Assembly: GCA_001430755.1 (NCBI GenBank)
Contig: CP013062.1
Span: 90,001 to 122,000 of the forward strand
Reading direction: 5' to 3'
Length of the DNA: 32,000 nucleotides
DNA from: Candidatus Peribacter riflensis
Lineage (GTDB): Bacteria > Patescibacteriota > Gracilibacteria > Peribacterales > Peribacteraceae
This document shows positions 1-27,896 of the stretch, piece by piece; position 1 is the stretch's first letter, and each line of letters starts with the position of its first letter. Below the pieces are notes generated by a model. It was not told the DNA's origin. It saw only the letters and a list, made by a program, of their open reading frames with translations, and searched no databases. The position numbers were made by a program, and so were the translations under genes.

Positions 1-133
1 GCTTCCGCATGTGACGTGCTTAGGGGAGGTACGATCCGGGGCCAGAGGATGGCGGCTGGATCTCTCTGTACACGATGAATATTGTTACGGGGTGGCCTGT
101 GAAACGACGCAGAGAGAAAAGCACGAGTGGTTA

Positions 134-808
134 CTATCGAGCGAAAGACCAATTCTGAGAGTATTGCTGCCACGCATTAATTTCCATTTCACAAAGCTTT
201 CGTTTCTTTTCATTTGGCATCTTGGCACAGAGAGAAGGATCTTTCATTTTAAAGGCATATCGTCTCTCGCAGATTTCCCGCAAGCCAGGCGGATCGGTGG
301 AGATCTTGTCGCACTCATACACGTTCGGCAACGAAGCAGAACGCTCTTCATGGCACCAATCGCGGAGGATTCGTTGATCATAGGCATTACAATCATCGAT
401 GCCCAAGTTTGGCGAGAAGACGTTATATGCTCCGCAGTTTATTTTCTCTTTGGTGCTTCCACAGCCAACGCCTTCCCAGAGTTTGCCCTTCACTGCCCCC
501 AAGCATGACCATCCGTAACTGCTCGGCATCAGAAGCTCACATGCGGAGGGATCTTTGGCGGTTTTGGCGTACGAATAAATGCACGATGCTCTTTGTTCTG
601 CGGCAGTGGGCGACATAATCTCAAACCAAATCAGATCCCAGCACTCGTTCGCTGGCCTCCCGTTCTTTACGAGATACTCGGCCAGATCCCACGGTGCCCA
701 ATTGATGTAGGGCCGGTGCCAGCCAAAGATTGTCATCCAACCATAGACGATCAGAGCTAAGACAGTTAGGGCGAGAGTGCCAATGAGGTATGGGGCACGG
801 AATCTCAT
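134..808 (-). CDS. Membrane-anchored cysteine-rich hypothetical protein (224 aa); candidate partner/immunity protein of the upstream lipase-domain giant protein
   Basis: Complete ORF. N-terminal hydrophobic helix (YLIGTLALTVLALIVYGW) followed by a ~190-aa domain with 12 Cys in paired helical-repeat-like spacing (DPSACELLMP..C, DPSLCAKMP..C, CNAY..RDWC, ECDKI..REIC). Its start at 808 lies 1 nt after the stop codon (810-812) of the upstream gene. GC is visibly lower than the window average. Confidence 0.7.
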   Translation of the reverse strand: MRFRAPYLIGTLALTVLALIVYGWMTIFGWHRPYINWAPWDLAEYLVKNGRPANECWDLIWFEIMSPTAAEQRASCIYSYAKTAKDPSACELLMPSSYGWSCLGAVKGKLWEGVGCGSTKEKINCGAYNVFSPNLGIDDCNAYDQRILRDWCHEERSASLPNVYECDKISTDPPGLREICERRYAFKMKDPSLCAKMPNEKKRKLCEMEINAWQQYSQNWSFAR

Positions 809-17175: not shown

Positions 17176-20100
17176 TTACATCGAGAGAAGCGCCAGCCCG
17201 ATGATGATGAAGAAGCGCGTATCCCCGTAGGTCTCGGGGTCGGCGGAGATCGGCGCTCCGTCGCCGATGAAGATCTGCAGGTCCTGCACCAACTGTCCGA
17301 TGGTGAGGAAGGTATTGCGGTACGTGCAGTCGGTGTCGCAGGCACCCGGTTCGGTGTCGCTGTTGCGGTTGCCGTCATCGCAGCGTTCCTGCGGGCGTCC
17401 GGCGGGATTGGCGTTCACGATGCCGTCGCCGCACGAGGAGGGGGTGTCTTCGGTCTCCGTCACGGTTTCTGGAGCAGGAAGGGGATCGTCAGCTGAGGGA
17501 TGGTCGGCATCATTGGGGGCAGGGGCCGGGAAACAGGGGAGTTCTCCGTGAAAGGTTCCATTGATCGGGAACCCTTCACAGACGGTCTGGGCGATTGCGT
17601 CGAAGCACACGCCAACACTGTCACTGCTCACGCTGCAGAACCCGGTGGTCGGAGGGGGCCCGATAAGAGGAATTTCTGTCTCATCTGTTCCGTCCGCCTC
17701 GTTCGTTTCTGCGATCTCCGCCGCATGCCGTTGCTCGCAGATCGTATCCTTGCTCGGCGAACACACCTTGCTGGCACTGTACCGCTTGCGCCCATCGTCG
17801 GACACGAAGGATATATACGAAAATACCGATTGATCTTTGCAGTTCTGTTCCTGCGTCACCGCGCATTTGGTTCCGTCAATCGGGCAGCAGGCCACTTTCT
17901 CATTCGCAGTCTTTCTGCAGTGGGCTTCGAAGGCCGGGCTGCACGAGGCGTAGTCGGTGAACACGGTGGAACACGCGGTCCGCACGTCTTCTTTTCTCAC
18001 CGTCTGGCAGTAGGGGAACGAATCGGAGACCCGGCGCTTCACGCAGCAGGCGACTTCCTGCACCGCTGCGCAACTGACGCCGTCACAGGAGTTGACCTCG
18101 TTGATCGGTTTCTCATCGTCGCAGTCTTCGCGTTTCTGGTTCTGCTTGCAGAAACCGCCTTCCTTCGGGCAGCAGGCGACAGGAGTCTCTTCGACCACCT
18201 CCTCACAGCTCTGCGGGGGGTTCGTACAGGTGGAAAATCGTTTCTCTCCCACACAGGATCCGGCCGGCAGCAGCTGGCAGGTCCACAGGCCGCTCGCGGG
18301 TTTTGCGCCGCAGCAGGCGACCATGGTGTCGGGGCACTGCTGCTTCCAGTTCTCCGGGCAGAATGCAGCCTCGCCGAGGCTCTTCACGTTCGGTCCGTTG
18401 ACACACTGGCTCTCGGCAACCGCCGCGCAGCCCCACGGAGAAAATTCCGATTCGCGCGCGCAGCAGGCCACCTGCTTTTCGGGCGGCTGACACTTGCGCT
18501 GGACTTCGGCGGCATCTGTGGGGCACGCGTCGCCTTCGATCTGCCTACTCTGTTCGTCGCAGGGGGACTGAGCGGTACACGTATAGGCGTTATCCGTTTT
18601 TTTGCAGCATGGAACGAGCTTTATGGGACCGCAGGCGGATGGAGCGTTGAGATTCGCGGGACAGGTGGTCGACGCGATCGGCCGCATGAGGGAGCCGGTG
18701 CAGGACGCTCTGGAGACAGAAGGGCTGCACGACCAGTCGGGATCTGTTTCTGAATCACGCTTGCAGCAGGCGACAGTGTTCGCAGGTGTGCAGGTCTGCG
18801 CGGTGCAGGTATCTGGAGGATCGAAAACGTCACTGTAGAACACGTTCACGCCGTTCTGGCTGTCACACTTCTGGCCCTGCGCGAGGCTGAGGTGCCAGCA
18901 GGTTCCCTTGATAGAACAGCACCCCACCTGACGTTCGAAAGGTTTGTAACAATTGGCGCCAGCGGGGCAGGTCTTACCAAAATCCGAATTCTTCTGGCAC
19001 TTTGCTTCCTTCTCGGGCTTGGGGAAGTTCGTGCAGGTCCATGTGGGGTTGCGTGCAGTGTCCTCTCCATTACTTTCGATGGGGCAGCAGGCGACGGTCT
19101 CTTCCGACTGTTTGCACGTTTCCTGCCAGTTGTCGGGACAGGTATCGGCAGATGCCTTGCCGAGCGATACCTGGTTCGTCGGATTGTTGCACTCGTTTAC
19201 ATTCTTCACCGCGCAGGTCCACGGTGCACTCTCTGCTGTCCGCTCGCAGCACGAAACTTTCTCTTCGCTGCCGCCGCACCGCTCCTGCAGTGCTTTTCCT
19301 GTCGGACACTTGTCTCCGGAGAGCTGTTTTCGTCCCTGCTGTTTACATTCCTCCGCAGTGGTGGGAGCCGGGAACGTACTATCGACACAACCATAGCGAT
19401 TATTTGCTAGCGTGATGCAGCAGGGAACGTATTTTCCGCACAGAGAGGGTGAGCAGGACCGTGCGTCAGACTTGAATGTGCCGCCCCACGTGTTGCAGTC
19501 CGTCTTCGACACCGTGCTGCAGCCTCCGTTGATCTTTTCGCTGCAGCACGGCCTGAGGCAGAAATCCGCTGGTGGCGAAGCATCCGTACCCTCTACGAAG
19601 TTTCCGGCGTTCGCGCTGGTATTGCACTCGTTCCGGCGCATCTTTTTGGGGCCGTCGGCGGTGCAGCACCAACCCTGCGGGCTGCAGAAGTCATCGTTGC
19701 AGGTGCGCATTCCCAGCTGCGCAGACGGCACGAAGGATCCCGCGAACGAGGAGCAGACCTCCGCAGGCGACTGGCCCGCCGTACCGTAGCCGCTGTTGTA
19801 GCTGATCCAGAGCGAAGGATTCCCTGCGAATGTGCCGTTCTTCACGTTGCAGCAGCAGCCCCCTTCCTGCGTCTTGGCGTTGCACTTGTCTGCGCAGTTT
19901 CCGGGGATGACGGTTCCGGGATGGTAGATGGTGCCGCCCACGTTCTGCATGCCGCACGAGGGGAGGGGCGAGCCGTCGGCATTGCCCCCGTGCGTGCACT
20001 GCCAGGAGGTGGTGTACGGAGGGGCGCCCCCTGCCGTGGGTGTCGAGACCATGCGGCAGCAGGTTTTGGTCTCGGGCGCTGGGCAGCAGCACACGCCTTT

Positions 20101-21870
20101 GGTGACGGGCTTGGGATCGAGCGCGACAGTGATGTCCGTTCCCTCGATCTGCCACGAGCACTCCGACGCATTCTGCTTCCAGATGCACCCCAGGTAGGTC
20201 TCGCCCGATGAGCCGCCGGGAACGGGAATCGTGGCGCAGTCGCTCTGCGCGCCGCACTGGCTGGAATTCTGCACGGCGAAGGCGCCGCTCTTGCTGCTGC
20301 ACTGGGCGGCGGTCAGGTTCTCGATCGTCTTCTGCACTGCATTGGTGCAGCAGAGGATGGTGGAACAGGGAGTGGCGTCCGTGACGGGGAAGCCTCCTCT
20401 GCTGCTGCACGCTGCTGCCAGGAGCTGTTCGGTCCGCCTCTGGAGAGGATTCATGCAGCAGGAAATCTTCTCTGGAGGGGAGGTGTTGCAGCCCGCAGTG
20501 CACTGCGTAGCCGGTTGCATGGAGCCCGGAGCGCACTTTCTCACAACACCGTCGACCCAAATATCTTTTTCCCGTTTGCATTCCGCGGCAGATTCCCCCA
20601 CGCACCGGGCATGCCTGCTGTCGGGATTCGTGAAGGCGGGCATCAGGTATGTCTGGCAGTCCGTGCGGCAGCACTTCTGAGCCTCGGGGGTCGGGCAGTA
20701 TACGGGAGACTGGCTGAAAAACTGCGCGAAGAGCCGGCCCCACTTTGATTGGGCGTAGCCGTTTTCTTTGCACACCCCGTTGCGGCCATAGGGTTCGACC
20801 CCATGCGCGCGGCACTCGTCGGGACAGACGTTATCATTGCAAAAGTGCAGCGAACCGATGTTGTAGCAGCAGGAACGTTTTTCAGAATCCGCGCACCGGC
20901 TCGAGACACTGGAGGAGGATGAAGAAGAGGGTAGTTGTGTCTGGGAAGAGGATGACTCTGCAGGAGAGGAGGATGCGTCGGGCTGGCAGGGGAAGCCGGC
21001 ACAGATTCCATTGCGGACACTGGCTGCGGAGCCGGCCGCCGGACTGCCGTGGATCGCGCACGCATCCGCCGGCATATTATCAAAGCAGCTCGTTCCGAGG
21101 CAGCAGGAAAGCAGCTCTTGAGAGGAGGAAGAGGAAGATACCGAAGAAGAGGAAGACGGCTGGATCGAATCCGGCGAGCTGCTGCCGGGAGTGACGGGGA
21201 GCACACAGGTGTTGCTTTGCGTGTCGCAGGAGACACCGGGGCAACAGACGAGGCTGGGATTGGTGTAAGAGCCGGACGTGTTACAGCAGGGAATCACCTG
21301 CGCGCAGGGATACGTGCCGGCTGGAAAGCACGCTCCCGCCCCGGGGCATGCCGACACGCCGTAGAGGGCCATACACTGTTGTTGCGGAGAACCGCTGCTC
21401 ACGCCCCCGGTTGACGACGAGGAATCCAGGCCGCCGGTCCCTCCGGAAGAGGCAGACCCATTCGATCCGCAGTTCTGTGCGGGGGGAGTGGCGCAACTCC
21501 CGTCGGGCATGCAGACGGTGCCGGCGCCGCACGTGAAGCCGCCCGGGCAGGTCACGCCGGCAACCATGTTCACCCAGCAGGAATCCTGGACGCTGGTGAT
21601 CCAGACGCAGGTGCCCTGCTGTTGCCCTTCTTCTTTCTGGCATCCGCCGTACATGTGGCCGCTGTACCAGTCGTACCACTGCGACCACCACGTGCATTCC
21701 GATACGAAGGCGCAATCGCAGTTCGTCTCGCAGACATCCCCCAGTTGCCCGGTCCCGTACAAGACCGTTGCCGTCAGTGCCGCGGAGGAATCTCGGCGGT
21801 CGATCAGTGAAACGGAGGCGGCCAGAGCGACAAGGAGCGCGCAGCCGATGATGAGCCGGGACCTTTGCAT
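17176..21870 (-). CDS. Giant secreted cysteine-rich repeat protein (1564 aa) with C-terminal tail anchor
   Basis: Signal peptide MQRSRLIIGCALLVALAASVS. Ser-rich linkers. Many degenerate modules start with a CC doublet (VACC/VSCC/VPCC ... C ... C ... C ... C). The C-terminal SCGDGIVNANPAGRPQERCDDGNRNSDTEPGACDTDC resembles the CGNG..EECDDGN..DGC cysteine-rich repeat. The extreme C-terminus is hydrophobic (RFFIIIGLALLSM). Confidence 0.9.
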   Translation of the reverse strand: MQRSRLIIGCALLVALAASVSLIDRRDSSAALTATVLYGTGQLGDVCETNCDCAFVSECTWWSQWYDWYSGHMYGGCQKEEGQQQGTCVWITSVQDSCWVNMVAGVTCPGGFTCGAGTVCMPDGSCATPPAQNCGSNGSASSGGTGGLDSSSSTGGVSSGSPQQQCMALYGVSACPGAGACFPAGTYPCAQVIPCCNTSGSYTNPSLVCCPGVSCDTQSNTCVLPVTPGSSSPDSIQPSSSSSVSSSSSSQELLSCCLGTSCFDNMPADACAIHGSPAAGSAASVRNGICAGFPCQPDASSSPAESSSSQTQLPSSSSSSSVSSRCADSEKRSCCYNIGSLHFCNDNVCPDECRAHGVEPYGRNGVCKENGYAQSKWGRLFAQFFSQSPVYCPTPEAQKCCRTDCQTYLMPAFTNPDSRHARCVGESAAECKREKDIWVDGVVRKCAPGSMQPATQCTAGCNTSPPEKISCCMNPLQRRTEQLLAAACSSRGGFPVTDATPCSTILCCTNAVQKTIENLTAAQCSSKSGAFAVQNSSQCGAQSDCATIPVPGGSSGETYLGCIWKQNASECSWQIEGTDITVALDPKPVTKGVCCCPAPETKTCCRMVSTPTAGGAPPYTTSWQCTHGGNADGSPLPSCGMQNVGGTIYHPGTVIPGNCADKCNAKTQEGGCCCNVKNGTFAGNPSLWISYNSGYGTAGQSPAEVCSSFAGSFVPSAQLGMRTCNDDFCSPQGWCCTADGPKKMRRNECNTSANAGNFVEGTDASPPADFCLRPCCSEKINGGCSTVSKTDCNTWGGTFKSDARSCSPSLCGKYVPCCITLANNRYGCVDSTFPAPTTAEECKQQGRKQLSGDKCPTGKALQERCGGSEEKVSCCERTAESAPWTCAVKNVNECNNPTNQVSLGKASADTCPDNWQETCKQSEETVACCPIESNGEDTARNPTWTCTNFPKPEKEAKCQKNSDFGKTCPAGANCYKPFERQVGCCSIKGTCWHLSLAQGQKCDSQNGVNVFYSDVFDPPDTCTAQTCTPANTVACCKRDSETDPDWSCSPSVSRASCTGSLMRPIASTTCPANLNAPSACGPIKLVPCCKKTDNAYTCTAQSPCDEQSRQIEGDACPTDAAEVQRKCQPPEKQVACCARESEFSPWGCAAVAESQCVNGPNVKSLGEAAFCPENWKQQCPDTMVACCGAKPASGLWTCQLLPAGSCVGEKRFSTCTNPPQSCEEVVEETPVACCPKEGGFCKQNQKREDCDDEKPINEVNSCDGVSCAAVQEVACCVKRRVSDSFPYCQTVRKEDVRTACSTVFTDYASCSPAFEAHCRKTANEKVACCPIDGTKCAVTQEQNCKDQSVFSYISFVSDDGRKRYSASKVCSPSKDTICEQRHAAEIAETNEADGTDETEIPLIGPPPTTGFCSVSSDSVGVCFDAIAQTVCEGFPINGTFHGELPCFPAPAPNDADHPSADDPLPAPETVTETEDTPSSCGDGIVNANPAGRPQERCDDGNRNSDTEPGACDTDCTYRNTFLTIGQLVQDLQIFIGDGAPISADPETYGDTRFFIIIGLALLSM

Positions 21871-21987
21871 GAACCGATGTGCGTGACTTTTTGCAGCATA
21901 ACGAGATCTGCGGCTTCTGTCGCTTGGACAGACATGGCCGATTGTTGCTAAAACACTATCGTCGTACCGCCGTCCCCGATGGGACCC

Positions 21988-22371
21988 TCACCGCCGCACG
22001 AATGTGTCTTCGTTCTGCGTGTCGATGCAGCCCGGCACGATGTCACTGGGAAAATCGTACGCATTCGCGATCTCGCAATTCATCATGCCGTTGCCGTCGA
22101 AGGCCAGTTCCCACCCACGGGCCGTCCTGGCTGCGAACCACATGCCGCCGCCCATTTCGCCCTCGAAGCGCACGGTACCGCGCGCGAATGCATTGGTCTC
22201 TTTCTGCACTTCGATGGCAAAGGTGCCAACAGGCCGGCTGTATTTTTCACTGAAGGCCTGGGCGACTGCCTCGCGCACGGGGCCGGCCGTTTCATCATTA
22301 TTCCGCCAGAGAAACGCTGCCGCGAGGAGGAGCAGGATGCCGAGGGCGCCGGGCAAAAGGTATTTTTTCAT
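21988..22371 (-). CDS. Small secreted/anchored hypothetical protein (127 aa)
   Basis: N-terminal signal/anchor MKKYLLPGALGILLLLAAAFLW. Host-like GC. No recognisable family. Confidence 0.7.
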   Translation of the reverse strand: MKKYLLPGALGILLLLAAAFLWRNNDETAGPVREAVAQAFSEKYSRPVGTFAIEVQKETNAFARGTVRFEGEMGGGMWFAARTARGWELAFDGNGMMNCEIANAYDFPSDIVPGCIDTQNEDTFVRR

Positions 22372-22454
22372 CGGCGTAATGCTACTGGTATTTCAAAGCT
22401 GTGCAAGCGTGCATACTGAGTGCGGGCTCGCTTTTTTGTATGCTTCTTCGCTTC

Positions 22455-22820
22455 TTAAAAACTCATCCAAAAAAACCAGGCACCAATGAGAACAATAACG
22501 CCGCCCCACAGTACCTGCCTGCTCTTGAACATCTGGGCTTTTCGATGAACACGATCAGGAAAACAAATTTTTTCAATTCCTTTCAATAACGTAGTCCATC
22601 CTAAAATCGTGATGGCAATCCGCCAGTCGGCGGTCCAGATATTGTGTGAAACGACGGTAGCCAAGCCCAACAAAAAGGTAATGTAACCGGTAGAAACCGT
22701 AATGGTTTTATTGTCGGTATACTCGATCACTCTCCCTAAAAACTTGGCGCCAACAGACAGTGCACCGAGAATCATAAAAAGACTTCCCCAAAATCGTGCT
22801 AGAAAAATTGTGATTTCCAT
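22455..22820 (-). CDS. Four-helix membrane protein (121 aa), hypothetical, low-GC
   Basis: Four hydrophobic segments. Visibly AT-rich codon usage compared with the core genes. It lies just outside the distal direct repeat of the tRNA-Asn island. Confidence 0.7.
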   Translation of the reverse strand: MEITIFLARFWGSLFMILGALSVGAKFLGRVIEYTDNKTITVSTGYITFLLGLATVVSHNIWTADWRIAITILGWTTLLKGIEKICFPDRVHRKAQMFKSRQVLWGGVIVLIGAWFFWMSF

Positions 22821-22877
22821 AGAGTGATTGAATCACAGTATGCATTATCTCTCAAACGGGACTTTTCATAGAAATAT

Positions 22878-22893
22878 TGGCTCCCCCGGCTGG
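22878..22893 (-). repeat. Direct repeat DR1 = exact copy of the last 16 nt of tRNA-Asn (CCAGCCGGGGGAGCCA); putative distal att site
   Basis: Plus-strand tggctcccccggctgg is identical to 26324-26339. Confidence 0.85.
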
Positions 22894-23057
22894 CCGTCTC
22901 CGCCTCCGGCTTCGCCGAGCCATTCCCATCCGTCGCCATCCTGTTTTTACGCACATCGAACTACCGAGCAAATCTCGGCGTAGTTCGATGAGTGAAACGA
23001 ATCGAACGAAGACGGATGGCTCCGCTGACTGGGTGTTTTCAGAACTCTTCCGAATAT

Positions 23058-24704
23058 TTAGCCTCCTGAAGACTCACCAGCGGGAAACAAATCTTCTGCA
23101 ACGCTTCGTATCGTAAATTCTGAGAAAAACCTTCTTTCTAAGAGTTTACCGTTTTTTAATCTTCCACTTATTCCGTTCCCATTTAACCCACCCAGCCTGT
23201 TAGTTATTGTTGTTGGCGTCACCCCCAGCCTTTTTGCCCAATAGAGTTTCAGTCCGTACTTTTGGTCATGATAGTCAAATGAGAGGGAATCGTCCGCAAG
23301 TGGCTCGGGGTACAATGCCCAATCAGTTACTTGCTTGGTGCGTGTTAACGCAGGTTTTTCCTCTCTCCTTGATTCTCTCAGTACTGGTTTCGGATAAAAA
23401 ACTGCCACAAGTCCATTTCTTGTTTTTCCTCTGATTCCCTCTGTAGTCCGAAGGCTTTCGGTGATGATCTTGTGTTCAGCATTGAGAATCTTTCGCCAAC
23501 CCTTCCTTGTTCTTAGTTCTATTCCATTGATTATAACAACTCCATCATCGTTGGCGACGGGAAGATTTGCAACCGACTCACCAACATTAGATGGCATGCA
23601 AAGCATATCCGCCATTTCCTCCATCTCGAGCATTCCTAATCTTGACGTTTTCCCTGTTAATAAACTGAATAACTCGAAAGTGCCACCCCAATCTTCAATT
23701 TGGGCACTTCTGAATCGGGTAACTCCAAAATGCAGTAATTCACCTTTTGTACGGATACCCAAAGCTTCCATTTTTCCCCTAATGTCACATTTTGTTGATT
23801 CACTGATTTTCGGCAAATCGATAATCCTAAAGAATTCCTCCATACTTTCCGCGGTTAGATTTTTTGGGATTTTTCCTGTCAGATTAAAATACATTTTCTT
23901 TGCCTTTCCGAATTCTTTAAAATCAAATTCCCTAAATTTATTAACTCCCTTTCGACGAGCAGTTACCCAATCGGTTACTCCGTTTATTCTCAATAGTTCT
24001 TTACATCGAGCCTTCGTATTTTCGTGAGCGGTGGGTAGATGAAGAATAGCAGCAATTTCAAGACCATCTCTCCGAGATAATTTTGATGCTTGTCCCGTTA
24101 GTACTCGAAATAATGCTGCACCATGATATCCATCGAATTGAACTCTCCTAAATTTGTTAGTTCCAATATTGCGCATTGTGGCCACATCAATTATTCCTGC
24201 CTTTTCCTCAAGCATCGCAACGAATCGAATTCTTGTCTCCTCAGACATTTCAGGCAGATGGAGTACATCAGCTAGTTCCTCCAGATTTTCTACTCGCAGT
24301 TGTGTGAGAGCCCTACCCGTTACAGCCCCGCAAAAAGCAATTCCTTTTCCTATTCCCTGGAAAGATAATGCTGCAAACCTACTCACTCCACACAATCTCA
24401 ATTCAACTCTATCCGATATCTTGTTCTCTTTGAGTCGTTGCAACAACTGTTGTTTCCATAATTGCGGGTCTTCTTTTGGTAGAAGTAAATCCATGCATAA
24501 GCGTCTGACATCTTCTTCGACGAAAGCACGGGCCACATCTCCTTTGTTCGTTACTCCTTGTATGTATGGGGCATTTCTCAATCTTGCATAAAGAATTGAA
24601 GGCTTAATTTTTAGAGCTTCGGCCCAGGCGTTGATATGCCCATATAGAATGGTCTCCTCAGATGACGCCTCTGGTGTCAGTTCTGCTTCTGACATACTAT
24701 TCAC
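23058..24704 (-). CDS. Repeat protein (548 aa): 4 tandem ~72-aa repeats plus 3 excisionase/MerR-like HTH-type motifs; function unknown
   Basis: The repeats share G(V/T)x(K/R)FR..F..G....F..LTG.....L......E.A..L.LP. Three motifs have the form W(A/R)(E/K)xL...P..I..RL....I.G....G.....F, at the N-terminus, after the repeats and at the C-terminus. The GTG start overlaps the helicase stop (GTGA); alternative ATG at 24695. Confidence 0.85.
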   Translation of the reverse strand: MNSMSEAELTPEASSEETILYGHINAWAEALKIKPSILYARLRNAPYIQGVTNKGDVARAFVEEDVRRLCMDLLLPKEDPQLWKQQLLQRLKENKISDRVELRLCGVSRFAALSFQGIGKGIAFCGAVTGRALTQLRVENLEELADVLHLPEMSEETRIRFVAMLEEKAGIIDVATMRNIGTNKFRRVQFDGYHGAALFRVLTGQASKLSRRDGLEIAAILHLPTAHENTKARCKELLRINGVTDWVTARRKGVNKFREFDFKEFGKAKKMYFNLTGKIPKNLTAESMEEFFRIIDLPKISESTKCDIRGKMEALGIRTKGELLHFGVTRFRSAQIEDWGGTFELFSLLTGKTSRLGMLEMEEMADMLCMPSNVGESVANLPVANDDGVVIINGIELRTRKGWRKILNAEHKIITESLRTTEGIRGKTRNGLVAVFYPKPVLRESRREEKPALTRTKQVTDWALYPEPLADDSLSFDYHDQKYGLKLYWAKRLGVTPTTITNRLGGLNGNGISGRLKNGKLLERRFFSEFTIRSVAEDLFPAGESSGG

Positions 24705-26194
24705 TGTTGCTCTGGCTCAATATCATCTCTACGCACATACCTTCGTGGAATGCGGAAAAACCCTTTTTCATCAAATTGAGGTCTCTCTCTCCTGATCTGC
24801 TCGAGAAGGTTTATGCGTCTAATAAGAGTTAGCTGAAGAGGTGGATTTTTTGCTTCAATGTGAGCACGTATCTGCGCAACAAGATCTCCTTCAGGACTCC
24901 CGCCATTCGTTTCTCCTTCTCTCTCGCCACGCAATCTCTGAAGCTCTTGCCATCCGCCAATAATGTCTGTGAACAACGCCGGGCGGAACTTATTGGATTT
25001 TGGGACTATTTGCACGATAACAGCATCATTTTTTTTCCATCCTCTTTTCCAGAGAGAACTACCTGGACGGATTTTACGCAAAATGCGTCCATGCCTTTGC
25101 TCAAGTTTATTGAGCGATTTTGTTGGGTAGGCATCGATGAGCAATTTTGCATTCTCTAAATTCATGCCTCGTCCTCCCATCTCGCACAGGACAATCACCT
25201 GCACCTCTCCATCTCGAAAACCATCAAGGGCAGTCTCAACTTCATGCGAATAATCTTCACCGGTAAGCCCAACTATTGTGAGTTCCGGGAAGCGTCCCTG
25301 GAATGATGCTGTAGTGGCAGCAACCATATCCTTACTAGGAACGTATACGAGAGTTGGACAATTTTTTCGGATATTTTCGGGAAGGAGATGCCCATATACA
25401 TCTGGAACTGCTCTATGTAATTCCGCATGTCTCCATGCCGCTTGTAATATTTTAGGATCGTAGTCACCCTTTCTAATCTTAAGGTCTGATTCCCTAATTT
25501 GTGATTCGTAAATGAAAAGTTCCGGCACAACATTAATGCGTTGTTTCATTGCTTCTAAAAGTGGGAGTTCATGAACAACGGGGCCATACCTATCAGAAAT
25601 ATGTCTGCCATCGGGCCACTCTTTTGTTGCTGTGAATCCTGCTGTAATTCGTGGATTGAGTGCATCAATGATTTTTGAACGCAAACTCGTTAGGAATCGA
25701 TCTACCTCATCGACGACACAGAGGTCGATTGCTTGGGAGGGGAGATATTTATGAAGCTCCCTTCGTGAATGTGCCATCTGTAAGGCATGAATTCCCGCTA
25801 CGATGATTGGTGGTTCAAATTCTCTGCGATTTCCGGACCAAATTCCTGTTTCAATTCCCAACGATTCAAATTGCTTTCGAATTCCACTAACAACTGTTCG
25901 ACCTTCGGTGATCACAAGATCCTTTCGATCGCTATTAATCCCAAGCTGGTCTTTGGCTGCTTGTGATGCAGACACTGCAGCTATCTCGACAAGCGTCTTT
26001 CCCGAACCACAGCTTGCAACCGCACACATTCGTTCTCGATTCAGGAGTAATCCTTCATATAATTCCTTCATCGCTTCTTGTTGATGATCTTCAAGACGAA
26101 TTCCGCTCTGTTTTGGGTCGGAATGAGGCAGGTATTCAAAACGGCTAGCAAACTGTTCCTGAAATGCCTCAAGGTACCCCGGGAGTTGAGCCAT
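24701..26194 (-). CDS. Superfamily-2 DEAD/DEAH-box helicase (ResIII/RadD-like), island-encoded
   Basis: LEDHQQEAMKEL, Walker A ASCGSGKT, DEVD (motif II), FTAT (III), KGDYDPKIL and QRHGRILR (VI). AT-rich codon usage. Confidence 0.88.
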   Translation of the reverse strand: MAQLPGYLEAFQEQFASRFEYLPHSDPKQSGIRLEDHQQEAMKELYEGLLLNRERMCAVASCGSGKTLVEIAAVSASQAAKDQLGINSDRKDLVITEGRTVVSGIRKQFESLGIETGIWSGNRREFEPPIIVAGIHALQMAHSRRELHKYLPSQAIDLCVVDEVDRFLTSLRSKIIDALNPRITAGFTATKEWPDGRHISDRYGPVVHELPLLEAMKQRINVVPELFIYESQIRESDLKIRKGDYDPKILQAAWRHAELHRAVPDVYGHLLPENIRKNCPTLVYVPSKDMVAATTASFQGRFPELTIVGLTGEDYSHEVETALDGFRDGEVQVIVLCEMGGRGMNLENAKLLIDAYPTKSLNKLEQRHGRILRKIRPGSSLWKRGWKKNDAVIVQIVPKSNKFRPALFTDIIGGWQELQRLRGEREGETNGGSPEGDLVAQIRAHIEAKNPPLQLTLIRRINLLEQIRRERPQFDEKGFFRIPRRYVRRDDIEPEQQ

Positions 26195-26200
26195 ATTTTT

Positions 26201-26228
26201 ATTCTAAACTGATATGAATACTTGTCAA
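26201..26228 (-). promoter_or_regulatory. Near-consensus sigma70 promoter of the island operon; predicted leaderless transcript
   Basis: The minus strand reads TTGACA (26228-26223), a 16-nt spacer, then TAGAAT (26206-26201). Only 6 nt (AAAAAT) separate the -10 from the ATG at 26194. It lies directly inside DR2. Confidence 0.55.
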
Positions 26229-26233
26229 TAAGT

Positions 26234-26246
26234 TGGCTCCCCCGGC
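26234..26246 (-). repeat. Direct repeat DR2 = exact copy of the last 13 nt of tRNA-Asn (GCCGGGGGAGCCA)
   Basis: Plus-strand tggctcccccggc is identical to 26324-26336. It is preceded on the minus strand by the nested hairpin CTGCGA-AGC-TCGCAG. Confidence 0.75.
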
Positions 26247-26323
26247 CCGTGCTTCGCTCTGCGAGCTTCGCAGGGCCTCGCGGCTATTACACAGGTGTTG
26301 AACTGGTTGATTGTTGTTAGAGA

Positions 26324-26398
26324 TGGCTCCCCCGGCTGGACTCGAACCAGCAACCTTGGCGTTAACAGCGCCCTGCTCTACCATTGAGCTACAGGGGA
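26324..26398 (-). tRNA. tRNA-Asn (anticodon GTT), CCA encoded
   Basis: Manual cloverleaf. Acceptor stem TCCCCTG/CGGGGGA (one G-U pair). D arm GCTC-AATGGTA-GAGC. Anticodon arm GGGCG-CTGTTAA-CGCCA (one G-A mismatch at 27-43). 5-nt variable loop. T arm GCTGG-TTCGAGT-CCAGC. Discriminator G, then CCA. 75 nt in total. Confidence 0.9.
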
Positions 26399-26426
26399 AC
26401 GTTGATGGAAAGAACTGCCGGTTGCT

Positions 26427-26525
26427 CCCTGCCCTGAGCGACTCCGCATGCGGAGGAGTCGAAGGGTACCATTGAGCTACCCGCCTTCGTCCCGCGACTG
26501 CGGGACTACGGACGGGCAGGCAGGG
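26427..26525 (-). other. Cloverleaf-like structured region containing a tRNA D-arm-derived fragment (not a canonical tRNA)
   Basis: The 14-nt stretch 26467-26480 is identical to 26379-26392 of tRNA-Asn. Three hairpins (26489-26506, 26464-26482, 26439-26461) are enclosed by a 7-bp closing stem (26427-26434 with 26514-26525). There is no anticodon/T-loop consensus and no CCA. Confidence 0.3.
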
Positions 26526-26627
26526 GACCGATGCATGCAAAGAACAAGACAGTCACTGATGTACGACTGGCGTCAGTATACGGATACCCGGCTGGGAAGA
26601 AATAGCGAAAAATGTCAGATATTCTTC

Positions 26628-27896
26628 CTACTTCCTCTTCCGCGGCAGGAGCAGCACGATTTCGCGTCCCACGAACTGATCGGGGCGGCGGTACAGCAGC
26701 GAAAGGCGGTTTTCGCGCGTCGGCTCGATGCCCGGAGGAAGGGTTGCGATGTACCCGGCCTTGTGTGCGGCCTCCCATGCGTGTTCCAGGAAGATCGTCT
26801 CGTTCTTGATCTTCCAGAAGGGCCACGTGAGGGCGAGCGGCACGCCGGGCAGGGTCTTGCTGCAGTTCTCGATGAACGCGGCCTCGAGCTTTTCGAGCTC
26901 CGTCTTCATTTTGGCGGCGGATTTCTGCGTGGGACGGTCCTCCAGCGCCGGGCCGAGGGTCGTTTCGGTCACCACCATGGCGGGCAGCTGCTTCAGCACG
27001 AACGGCTTGAGGGCATCCTGCTTCCAGACGGTGCTCTCGGCATCTTTTTTGAGAATCTTCAGTTCCTTGCGCAGCCACTCCAGGTTCTTCTCGCAGCCGT
27101 TCACGGCTTTCTGCGCGAGATCCGACGCGAGCACGTGCCAGCCGCGCACGAGGCACTCGATGGGGATCACGCCGGTGCCGCAGAAGGGATCGAACACAGT
27201 GAGAGGCTCGGGCTTCTTCGCCCGCTTCTGTGTGGGATCGTGCAGGGGAGTCTGGCATCCGCGCGACAGCCACGCGCCCATGTTGAGCAGAATCTGTGCG
27301 AGCTTGGGCGGCAGCAGACCAACGGTCGTGTCGCGCACGGGCTTGCCGATATCCCGCTTGGTGTAGGCGTTGACGTCCTGTGCGGCGATGGTGCGGCCGA
27401 TCCAGAAGGTCTGGTTATCTTCCTCTTCGCTCTCGGGCAGGAGCACGAGTTCACAGCCGCGTTTGGGATCCAGCAGGCCCGCATCGCGCAGCAGCACCGG
27501 AGGCGCAGGCTCGCGCTCACTGCCCACATAGCGGCAGGGGCGGCCGAGCTTGCGGAGTGCTTCCTTACACTGGCGGTAGAGCGTGTGGATGGCCGGGCGC
27601 GGCAGGAGCAGCGTGCGGAGCGAGAAGGTGACTTTACTGCGGCGCGCATCTTTGAGTTCGCTCACGAGCAGCGAAGGAACTTCTGCAGGGGTCACCGCCT
27701 GATCGGTGGCGCGGCGGGCGAGGATGACGATGCCTCCCAACGTGTCGAGAAAAGCCGCATCGAGTTCCACGGGGCTCTCGAAGAGGACGACGGCATCTTT
27801 GATGGTCCTGCGATACAGAAAGCCCGGAACGGCGGCGGCCAGTTCTGCGAGCGAGATGCGCGGCTGATGACCGAGGAAGGCGGCGTACGATGGCAT
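26628..27896 (-). CDS. Class I SAM-dependent methyltransferase, Trm11/UPF0020-like (probable RNA methyltransferase)
   Basis: YTKRDIGKPVRDTTVGLLPPKLAQILLNMG ... VFDPFCGTGVIPIEC matches the Trm11-type pre-motif and motif I. Motif IV is the non-canonical VVTETTLGP rather than (D/N)PPY. The start at 27896 (MPSYAAF) is preferred over the ORF-track start at 27986, because a promoter-like element and an inverted repeat lie in between. Confidence 0.7.
   Translation of the reverse strand: MPSYAAFLGHQPRISLAELAAAVPGFLYRRTIKDAVVLFESPVELDAAFLDTLGGIVILARRATDQAVTPAEVPSLLVSELKDARRSKVTFSLRTLLLPRPAIHTLYRQCKEALRKLGRPCRYVGSEREPAPPVLLRDAGLLDPKRGCELVLLPESEEEDNQTFWIGRTIAAQDVNAYTKRDIGKPVRDTTVGLLPPKLAQILLNMGAWLSRGCQTPLHDPTQKRAKKPEPLTVFDPFCGTGVIPIECLVRGWHVLASDLAQKAVNGCEKNLEWLRKELKILKKDAESTVWKQDALKPFVLKQLPAMVVTETTLGPALEDRPTQKSAAKMKTELEKLEAAFIENCSKTLPGVPLALTWPFWKIKNETIFLEHAWEAAHKAGYIATLPPGIEPTRENRLSLLYRRPDQFVGREIVLLLPRKRK

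Follow-up and report, generated by a model that had tools for sequence, protein, structure and literature searches.

The 548-aa protein encoded by a GTG-initiated gene in the window analysed here (32,000 nucleotides of the Candidatus Peribacter riflensis genome, contig CP013062.1) is probably the array subunit, for DNA binding or targeting, of a two-gene SF2 translocase cassette, and such helicase-plus-array cassettes are characteristic of the Peregrinibacteria/Peribacteria/Gracilibacteria branch of the CPR bacteria. It is built from two small repeat domains that had carried no annotation: R, with a predicted fold that has no detectable solved relative, and M, a helix-turn-helix (HTH) with conserved extra parts of its own. 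Conserved gene order and gene fusions bind both domains to a specific SF2 helicase family, and more than 240 clusters of CPR "hypothetical proteins" become a testable system of a motor plus a candidate DNA-binding array. Table 1 gives the features of the cassette and its surroundings.

Table 1. Features of the helicase-array cassette and its flanks (nucleotide positions are those of the window).
Feature	Nucleotides	Residues	Strand	Basis or remark
Array-protein gene	23058..24704	548 aa	(-)	ORF list and domain dissection
M1, N-terminal HTH-plus-wing module	24471..24662	~15-78	(-)	Family HMM
R1, first ~72-aa repeat copy	24231..24449	~86-158	(-)	Smith-Waterman, HMM, AF2
R2	24012..24230	~159-231	(-)	Smith-Waterman, HMM, AF2
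R3	23790..24011	~232-305	(-)	Smith-Waterman, HMM, AF2
R4	23568..23789	~306-379	(-)	Smith-Waterman, HMM, AF2
M2, HTH module	23361..23546	~387-448	(-)	Family HMM
M3, HTH module	23073..23282	~475-544	(-)	Family HMM; weak Pfam HTH_8/HTH_50 match at aa 490-504
SF2 helicase/translocase (ResIII + Helicase_C)	24701..26194	497 aa	(-)	Directly upstream of array gene
Sigma-70-like promoter, TTGACA-16 nt-TAGAAT (11/12)	26201..26228		(-)	Just upstream of helicase start; consensus match only
Terminator-like hairpin	23005..23026		(-)	Just downstream of array-gene stop; consensus match only
tRNA-Asn(GTT)	26324..26398		(-)	ARAGORN; Rfam 66.9 bits; 3' end faces cassette
16-nt direct repeat TGGCTCCCCCGGCTGG, proximal copy	26324..26339			tRNA 3' end; attL/attR-like
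16-nt direct repeat, distal copy	22878..22893			Exact copy
Inner partial copy of tRNA 3' end	26234..26249			13 nt exact; between tRNA and promoter
Inner degenerate repeat copy	23017..23032			81% identity; overlaps terminator-like hairpin

The initial annotation of this DNA had described four consecutive ~72-aa repeats interleaved with three HTH motifs. The four repeats are real: their starts fall at aa 96, 171, 243 and 317, which gives a spacing of 72-75 aa, and in pairwise Smith-Waterman alignment each of the six pairs outscores 500 of 500 shuffles (z = 8.0-18.7). A family HMM recovers four copies and no more, spread over aa ~86-379 (DNA 23568-24449). Default self-BLASTP of the 548-aa protein misses them, since one copy shares just 25-30% identity with another, but the shuffled Smith-Waterman comparison and the HMM both return four significant copies. 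The modules are not interleaved, however, and their true order is M-R-R-R-R-M-M. The likeness of M1, M2 and M3 to one another is modest (z of 6.2, 5.3 and 3.0; matched by 0, 2 and 10 of 1000 shuffles), and the family HMM picks up all three clearly (i-E values of 5e-15, 3e-12 and 6e-14). With a pI of 9.3 and a net charge of +13 it is a basic protein, and the charge is concentrated in R2, R3, M2 and M3. Gene callers take an ATG three codons after the GTG start and so predict 545 rather than 548 aa.

Module M is a ~65-aa HTH with a beta-hairpin wing. Its HTH segment (RYGTIEAWAKELGISESTIRKRLKG) lies at consensus positions 10-36, where many HTH models align and recognise it weakly; in a consensus test HTH_10, HTH_8 and HTH_30 match every M copy, and the Pfam matches among 63 M-type relatives are to HTH_10 (28/63), HTH_50 (19/63) and HTH_30, HTH_8 and DUF739 (16/63 each). 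NUMOD1 and I-HmuI-NUMOD also match M weakly, and among PDB sequences it comes closest, without significance, to the HTH regions of Cro and of TyrR. The natural 548-aa protein falls under every HTH cutoff (HTH_8 at 14.1 bits), and AlphaFold2 models its M modules poorly (pLDDT 25-65). By these profile matches the M modules belong to the HTH superfamily in the generic sense. The earlier description of them as three excisionase- or MerR-type winged HTH motifs thus stands in its HTH part, which the 63 relatives bear out, but not in the specific assignment: HTH_17 (PF12728) and MerR_1 (PF13411) have no match in the 548-aa protein and give weak matches in 4/63 and 3/63 of the relatives, far behind HTH_10, HTH_50, HTH_30 and HTH_8. 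M shares the canonical helix-turn-recognition-helix with generic HTH families (HTH_10, HTH_8/Fis, HTH_30, HTH_50 and Cro/C1) and differs from them in its long arrays and in its own conserved N-terminal beta-hairpin (GFFxxxGxRYG), wing and C-terminal helix (FYsExxVRxxCxDLL).

Module R is modelled by AlphaFold2 as a four-helix domain of ~72 aa with a small Gly-rich hairpin. With a 57-sequence alignment the pLDDT is 94-98 across the R block (aa 80-375), and the four copies come out as one confident block (pTM 0.60); without an alignment it is only 33. R is by this modelling a real folded domain with a confidently predicted fold. The initial annotation recognised no named family in the repeat and allowed that profile searches might yet place it in a well-known one; R found no match above cutoff in Pfam, PHROGs, PADLOC or NCBIfam, a PDB profile search with R gave nothing significant, and Foldseek of the full model gave no match at E < 0.3 against PDB or BFVD. 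Below the cutoffs, HTH_26 (PF13443, Cro/C1-type) matches weakly in 13/57 R proteins (those scanned individually lie below the 22-bit cutoff), PsbU matches weakly in 9/57 (best whole-protein E 5e-07), and matches to HHH_5, HHH_RecD2 and short Rho_N/SAP-like motifs are all sub-threshold. The copies differ in charge: strongly basic in R2 and R3, neutral in R1, acidic in R4. The sub-threshold matches hint that R may bind nucleic acid, and the charge of R1 and R4 speaks against it. A likeness to the Protein A B-domain (PDB phmmer, whole-protein E 6e-4) was rejected, each individual stretch having E > 79, as a chance match of the short motif 'LHLP..EE.R..F'.

The partner helicase has intact motifs I, II, III and VI, which are invariant in the helicase family, and the solved structures closest to it are those of restriction-type translocases and XPB. 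The two genes overlap by 4 nt, where the helicase stop codon runs into the GTG start of the array gene (caGTGA), and one promoter-like and one terminator-like site, both consensus matches, flank the pair. Whether homologs of the array protein always adjoin an SF2 helicase had been put forward as a check, and in the helicase family they do: M/R arrays lie directly downstream of the helicase, or are fused to its C-terminus, in 27/27 assessable loci, which span Peribacteria, Peregrinibacteria and Gracilibacteria. The downstream array genes number 1-4 per locus and often overlap the helicase stop codon. Fusions to this same helicase family make up 18 of the 150 best relatives of the 548-aa protein (12 HEL-M and 6 HEL-R), and of ten members scanned five more are fused to SF2/SNF2 helicases that have diverged further (P0059, P0060, P0110, P0168 and P0169), P0168 being M modules joined to an SNF2-type ATPase. 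The fusions are Rosetta-stone evidence for a functional complex of helicase and array. The 548-aa protein is thus a probable DNA-binding partner of the upstream SF2 helicase, and we propose that the two proteins would be in physical contact. The idea of a split M module, in which the helicase tail complements the first M, was dropped, since the two share only a 'LPQADxxGFF..RRY' motif and an HMM test did no better than the control.

The M/R family comprises at least 247 cluster representatives, found by exhaustive HMMER searching, with R or M arrays of 3-13 copies; that method was required, as a word-indexed homolog search with the 548-aa protein retrieved only itself, and one with the R-domain alignment found no relatives. 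The repeat had been called novel and is indeed unnamed in the libraries searched, but the protein is not a singleton. No annotation was found for any family member, and literature searches returned no description of the cassette. M occurs head-to-tail in up to 13 copies, and to our knowledge HTH domains in arrays of such length are unusual. Among the genomes sampled the arrays are restricted to CPR bacteria; tblastn found no relatives of the array protein in phage and plasmid collections, viral-contig scans with the helicase alignment, P0050, P0055 and the 548-aa protein found none either, and phage helicases are just 22-26% identical to the cassette helicase. Array partners share ~30% identity and have 4 versus 6 repeats, as against 68% identity for the helicase, and M1 is the sole module clearly orthologous to the partner at locus L004. 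Along the arrays, positions of a conserved core are interspersed with highly variable ones, and array length varies widely. Certain R-only proteins, for example P0050, have no helicase beside them (on short contigs), and M/R modules can therefore act in other contexts.

The closest parallel in architecture is the Pfam HA "helicase associated domain" (PF03457), a small helical module of ~60-70 aa that, like M and R, occurs in several tandem copies on or beside SF2 helicases; for the M/R arrays this tie is seen in the 27 loci and 18 or more fusions above. At locus L006, in another species, what follows the M module of the array partner is an HA domain (39.4 bits; cutoff 28.4). With HA in this position, M, R and HA look like exchangeable add-ons to a single helicase family. 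HA is DNA-binding according to the title of a structure paper (Mills et al. 2013, cited as reference 64 of PMC12191111). The 548-aa protein itself has no Pfam HA match, HA being present only in the L006 homolog, and hhalign, run with the R and M profiles against each other and against the L006 partner that bears HA, detected no homology (probability <1%). M/R arrays also differ from HA arrays in usually being a separate, translationally coupled polypeptide and in their restriction to CPR bacteria as sampled. They extend the little-studied theme of helicase-associated repeat arrays, of which HA is an example. SNF2/ISWI remodelers with SANT-SLIDE and homing endonucleases with NUMOD repeats are likewise motors or enzymes with appended DNA-binding modules. 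The cassette may be analogous to these in joining a motor to multiple small helical modules that position it.

An att-like repeat had been noted next to the array gene, and it proves to be an exact 16-nt copy of the 3' end of the neighbouring tRNA-Asn. The 3.4-kb islet between the two repeats (22894-26323) contains only the two cassette genes and has a GC content of 0.436 versus 0.607 outside, and Rfam searching of 21800-26800 found only the tRNA. The islet has the pattern of a tRNA-integrated island, in which direct repeats of a tRNA end bound a segment of atypical composition; the integrase and the empty site or excision by which such islands are also known were not found for it. Locus L006 has the same layout at a tRNA-Gln, where a 20-nt repeat bounds an islet with only these two genes. 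A tRNA lies <1 kb upstream of the cassette in 7/27 loci versus ~2% expected, and cassette GC is under that of the flanks in 5/7 loci. Most cassettes are without flanking repeats: tRNA-end repeats were sought in L016, L020, L031 and L032 and none was found, and L018 has only short tRNA-end copies between tRNA and helicase, on a contig that stops before a distal repeat would be visible. Integrase, recombinase and replication Pfam families were absent from the annotated flanks of 7 loci and from the islet, a search for an empty site by way of the exact flanking proteins found the islet in all 24 contigs of the species read (the 452-aa flanking protein, with that start codon, had no record), and the tRNA-Asn and tRNA-Gln islets have no terminal sequences or inverted repeats in common. 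Such integrase-less two-gene islets linked to tRNAs bear on how cargo of this kind moves in CPR genomes.

The tRNA-end repeats invite two other explanations of the cassette. The 548-aa protein could be a recombination-directionality factor (excisionase) or replication initiator of an integrated element and act on the att-like repeats, roles that the initial annotation had raised together with sensing. Its HTH modules are followed by a short wing-like hairpin, as in the excisionase/MerR families, its gene lies near att-like repeats, exact tRNA-3'-end repeats flank the cassette in two species, and a few family members match HTH_17 or MerR_1. Those matches are nevertheless confined to 3-4/63 of the relatives, the cassette has no partner integrase, no recombinase or replication gene is present in any annotated flank, flanking repeats are missing from most cassettes, relatives are absent from the phage, plasmid and viral-contig collections searched, and arrays of up to 13 modules with helicase fusions are unlike any known excisionase. 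We consider this very unlikely, and none of the three earlier proposed roles gained specific support. Even less credible, and in our judgement highly improbable, is that the two genes are a minimal integrase-less mobile element aimed at tRNA 3' ends, with helicase and HTH arrays as its integration machinery. The existence in two species of two-gene-only islets with exact repeats at different tRNAs, and the enrichment of tRNAs beside cassettes, would be expected of such an element, but the two islets lack common termini, the cassette has no detectable catalytic recombinase or nuclease domain, the 24 contigs include no empty site, most loci have no repeats, and the nested degenerate repeat copies better fit the decay of larger tandem insertions.

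The other alternatives concern what the arrays bind and what the cassette is for. The R array might be a solenoid-like protein-protein scaffold that recruits other factors to the helicase, and not a nucleic-acid binder. This would suit its modelling as one confident block (pLDDT >94), its lack of significant similarity to any DNA-binding family and the fact that R1 and R4 are not basic, but on one helicase family R takes the place that HA and the HTH module M also occupy, two of its copies (R2 and R3) have a strongly basic charge, and the weak matches of R are to HTH_26, HhH-type (PsbU) and SAP-like motifs, so that we think a scaffold unlikely. It is conceivable, if rather doubtful, that the cassette serves in defence against phages or mobile elements, with the variable arrays as the sensor or specificity component and the SF2 translocase as the effector motor or as the recruiter of one. 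The low-GC islet at a tRNA, the GC deficit and tRNA proximity of other loci, the fast change of the arrays relative to the helicase, the restriction-type motors among the nearest solved helicase relatives, one locus whose neighbours are an MmeI-type restriction-modification gene and an AIPR protein, and weak PADLOC matches of the helicase to type IV REase helicase, PbeA and DpdE all argue for it. On the other side, the cassette yielded no nuclease and no other effector domain, the best PADLOC-DB match (1.5e-07) covers the helicase core only and the array protein has none, the islet is fixed in all contigs read, and most loci are outside recognisable defence neighbourhoods. As a proposal on biological role, defence does not conflict with the array-subunit architecture.

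In the array-subunit reading that we prefer, the 548-aa protein would be a non-catalytic subunit whose gene is translationally coupled to that of the upstream translocase. Its conserved N-terminal M would probably dock to the helicase, its M/R array would contact DNA at several adjacent or dispersed points, and the DNA-bound array might then load, anchor or target the ATP-driven translocase encoded immediately upstream. A housekeeping role seems less likely for the cassette than one in genetic conflict or mobile DNA, given the low-GC tRNA islet, the fast-evolving arrays and the patchy placement in genomes. A bolder version, to which we give little credence, is that M/R arrays are modular combinatorial DNA readers of 4-13 modules that address the translocase to long lineage-specific targets. 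Each module may read a few base pairs, with specificity from the variable recognition-helix and loop positions, and the arrays would by analogy give CPR bacteria a motor-coupled form of programmable recognition akin to that of TALE or PUF proteins, possibly for defence against mobile DNA. Arrays of this kind, if indeed sequence-specific and modular, would be of interest to protein engineering as well as to microbiology. Repeat turnover within lineages, the variable positions and the varied array lengths are compatible with such modular reading.

The initial annotation had described the array protein as four tandem repeats of ~72 aa interleaved with three excisionase- or MerR-like helix-turn-helix (HTH) motifs, and the four repeats are borne out. 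They start at aa 96, 171, 243 and 317 (period 72–75 aa), and because these copies (R modules) are only 25–30% identical to one another, default self-BLASTP did not detect them; all their pairwise Smith-Waterman scores exceed those of 500/500 shuffles (z = 8.0–18.7), and a family HMM places precisely four of them at aa ~86–379. The three motifs of the second kind (M modules) are also present, at aa ~15–78, 387–448 and 475–544, where the family HMM recognizes them strongly (i-E 5e-15 to 3e-12) and their mutual likeness is modest (z = 6.2, 5.3 and 3.0), but they are not interleaved with the repeats, since the module order is M-R-R-R-R-M-M. The protein is basic overall (pI 9.3); gene callers start it at an ATG three codons after the GTG, which gives 545 aa.

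Features of the cassette, its flanks and related loci (window coordinates unless a locus is named)
Feature	Position	Strand	Remarks
Array gene	23058..24704	minus	548 aa from GTG start
SF2 helicase gene	24701..26194	minus	497 aa, upstream of array gene
tRNA-Asn(GTT)	26324-26398	minus	
Partial repeat copy	26234-26249		11/12 promoter-like site (26228 to 26201) directly after
Partial repeat copy	23017-23032		overlaps terminator-like hairpin (23026 to 23005)
tRNA 5'-part copy	26467-26480		14 nt of tRNA-Asn D-arm
tRNA 5'-part copy	L006 5551-5562		12 nt of tRNA-Gln 5' end
tRNA 5'-part copy	L018 8859-8879		21 nt of tRNA-Ala 5' end

Against Pfam the array protein gives sub-threshold matches only (HTH_8/HTH_50 at aa 490–504, PsbU at aa 261–318), and it has no match in PHROGs, PADLOC or NCBIfam. 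A word-indexed search returned only the protein itself, on many contigs of one species (e.g., GCA_003509365.1); exhaustive HMMER comparison with 1.84 billion representatives returned 247 proteins at E ≤ 1e-3, of which 159 reach ≤ 1e-10 and 25 reach ≤ 1e-30. Dissection of the best 150 of the 247 relatives with iterated local HMMs yielded two independent modules, R and M, each in head-to-tail arrays of 3–13 copies, and the architectures among these 150 were M only (77 proteins), R only (48), M and R mixed (14), helicase-M fusion (12) and helicase-R fusion (6). Five of 10 poorly covered relatives were found by Pfam scan to be additional fusions, in which R or M is joined to SF2/SNF2 helicases that are more diverged. 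Family members have no database name or are called "hypothetical", apart from one fusion named "superfamily II helicase/AraC-like DNA-binding protein", and literature searches found no description of the helicase-array cassette.

The R module is ~67–72 aa long, with consensus YREALAEHGITDRRSLLAKGVKKFKKLDFGPFGKGKAFASAVLGRSIKNVTLEDLEEIADKLGLPEL. Weak matches among 57 R-type proteins were to HTH_26 (13), PsbU (9), DUF6301 (6) and INT_rpt (2), and the consensus gives only short, sub-threshold motif matches (Rho_N/SAP/HeH-like) over helix 4 and the next loop. The AlphaFold2 model of aa 80–375, built from a 57-sequence family alignment, is confident (pLDDT 94–98, pTM 0.60) and predicts for each repeat four helices, of which the second and third are separated by a small hairpin (F.G.GKG). 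Foldseek, with this whole multi-domain model as query, gave no match at E ≤ 0.001 (best 0.33 in the PDB and 0.49 in BFVD), although small helical domains are hard to place, and the R profile found nothing among PDB sequences (best E 0.45). The initial annotation had not recognized the repeat as any named family, which held in Pfam, PHROGs, PADLOC, NCBIfam and the PDB profile search, and R is apparently one new domain family. Profile-profile comparison found no mutual relationship among R, M and HA (Pfam PF03457, "helicase associated domain"). P0162, a helicase-R7 fusion, has an above-cutoff match to Pfam INT_rpt ("integrase repeat unit", 35.5 bits) at aa 652–688, just ahead of its first R.

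The M module is ~65 aa long, with consensus DGFFEIDGERYGTIEAWAKELGISESTIRKRLKGIKGIKGKDKNGRIRDFYSESDVREACADLLE, and many HTH models align to its positions 10–36, RYGTIEAWAKELGISESTIRKRLKG, when the triplicated consensus is the query; M is therefore an HTH, with a predicted N-terminal beta-hairpin, wing and C-terminal helix of its own. The HTH nature of the motifs thus stands, but a specifically excisionase/MerR-like identity is not supported: among 63 M-type proteins the weak matches were to HTH_10 (28), HTH_50 (19), HTH_30, HTH_8 and DUF739 (16 each), whereas HTH_17 matched four and MerR_1 three. Among PDB sequences the M profile came closest, below significance, to the HTH segments of a Cro and TyrR. 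Judged by sequence, M belongs to the broad HTH superfamily only.

The stop codon of the helicase gene overlaps the start of the array gene (caGTGA). The helicase matches ResIII (2.6e-16), Helicase_C (4.6e-12) and phrog_16 "DNA helicase" (8e-33), the ATPase motifs of its family are invariant, and among solved structures it is nearest to restriction-type translocases (7clg, E 1e-17; type I R subunit) and XPB. Clear homologs (34–69% identity) are annotated as Peribacteria, Peregrinibacteria or Gracilibacteria. Six loci from exact look-ups, 14 from species-representative genomes and 16 from metagenomes reduce to 27 distinct assessable ones, and the constant helicase-array neighborhood that the initial annotation had proposed checking was found in all 27, as one to four array genes immediately 3' of the helicase or as a fused array. 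Separately encoded partners always begin with M. Closely related helicases have differing arrays: helicases 68, 66 and 57% identical to the window's have as partners M-R6-M-M (L004), M6 + M6 + M11 (L029) and M followed by a Pfam HA domain (L006; 39.4 bits, cutoff 28.4), respectively. The partner in L004, a syntenic relative, is only ~30% identical to the window protein and has six R copies rather than four; R copies are more alike within each protein than between these orthologs, which indicates lineage-specific repeat turnover, and M1 is the only module clearly orthologous between the two (score 152). Helicase tails end in LPQADxxGFF.LPRRY, a motif that also joins consecutive M modules; this sharing suggests that a fusion gene may have split to give the separate genes and that the tail may dock to M1. 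An HMM test of a split M module in the helicase tail did no better than its control.

Some loci are more elaborate. One genome (L008/L017; L017 8977-16089) has five consecutive M-module ORFs downstream of the helicase (four arrays of 4–6 modules and a 91-aa single-module ORF) and a divergent four-module gene upstream, ~24 HTH modules overall. Three array genes stand in a row in L029 and L034-L038. In Gracilibacteria locus L012/L023 (L023 9798-13200), whose 3' end abuts a tRNA-Gly, a helicase-M5 fusion is overlapped in a different frame by an M4 ORF that follows it; this second ORF has in-frame TGA codons under table 11 and the called helicase gene's translation differs from the database protein, both consistent with genetic code 25 in that lineage.

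We consider it probable that the 548-aa protein serves as the array subunit in a helicase-array machine, in which its modules would bind DNA and the DNA-bound array would load, anchor or target the translocase. Four observations argue for this: gene linkage is strict and fusions recur (Rosetta-stone logic), M is an HTH, the protein is basic, and M and R are interchangeable with HA, which is reported to bind DNA (Mills et al. 2013, as cited in PMC12191111). We infer DNA binding by R, helicase contact and biological role. SF2 helicases with tandem HA repeats are the nearest known kind and are alike in architecture, and the L006 homolog literally uses HA, but by sequence R and M are not HA domains. 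That R is instead a protein-protein scaffold is unlikely. An excisionase or replication initiator, as HTH modules beside a repeat had suggested, is very improbable; by sequence M is not an excisionase/MerR domain. A defence role is compatible with the helicase-array architecture and is a tentative possibility. The cassette represents a new family, solid and well delimited, from a phylum that has received little study, and it offers a clear hypothesis for testing rather than a demonstrated new mechanism.

The cassette stretch has 42–46% GC versus ~61% for the genome, and the last 16 nt of tRNA-Asn, TGGCTCCCCCGGCTGG, are exactly repeated at 22878-22893; the 3.4 kb islet between the copies holds the helicase and array genes only. 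In a second species (L006/L014/L030) the tRNA-Gln 3' end recurs exactly over 20 nt, and the two copies likewise bracket only helicase and partner; in L013 a degenerate repeat (16 nt, two mismatches) follows the tRNA-Asn at a downstream distance of ~10 kb. In 7/27 loci the helicase is preceded within 1 kb by a same-strand tRNA (Asn 2, Gly 2, Gln, Glu and Ala 1 each), against a chance expectation of ~2% (rough binomial p ~1e-6). Cassette GC is below flank GC in 5/7 loci. Such placement might point to a self-mobile, integrase-less element, but we regard this as scarcely credible, since integrase and recombinase families are absent from all annotated cassette flanks, the two islets bounded by repeats have neither end sequences nor inverted repeats in common, most helicase loci lack repeats, the islet is present on 24/24 contigs read for the window species, and no relatives were found in phage, plasmid or viral-contig collections. 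Most economically, the cassette is read as retained cargo of decayed tRNA-integrated elements rather than a currently mobile unit.

At the syntenic tRNA-Asn of a related Peribacteraceae (L004/L013; L013 4590-15016) a larger insert, in which no integrase was found, places three unannotated genes (93, 203 and 590 aa) between tRNA and helicase. In three loci the 5' part of the island-linked tRNA is copied exactly over a short length ~90–120 nt upstream of that tRNA (table); these copies may be what remains of a disrupted tRNA or of previous insertions that targeted tRNAs. Outside the 22878-22893 repeat, 22455-22820(-) encodes a predicted membrane protein of 121 aa that matches no family and lies in the low-GC stretch (~42–47% GC), so the atypical composition reaches ~500 nt past the islet; this segment may be left over from an older insertion. 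Farther along, 17176-21870(-) encodes a Cys-rich protein of 1564 aa that has a signal-like segment at its N terminus, Ser-rich linkers and no Pfam match on record; large secreted or surface proteins of this sort are typical of CPR genomes. The only defence-like neighborhood among the loci seen is L011 (1-3087), where an MmeI-type restriction-modification fusion gene and an AIPR (abortive-infection-like) gene are found a few kb away from the cassette and a RecQ helicase flanks its opposite side.
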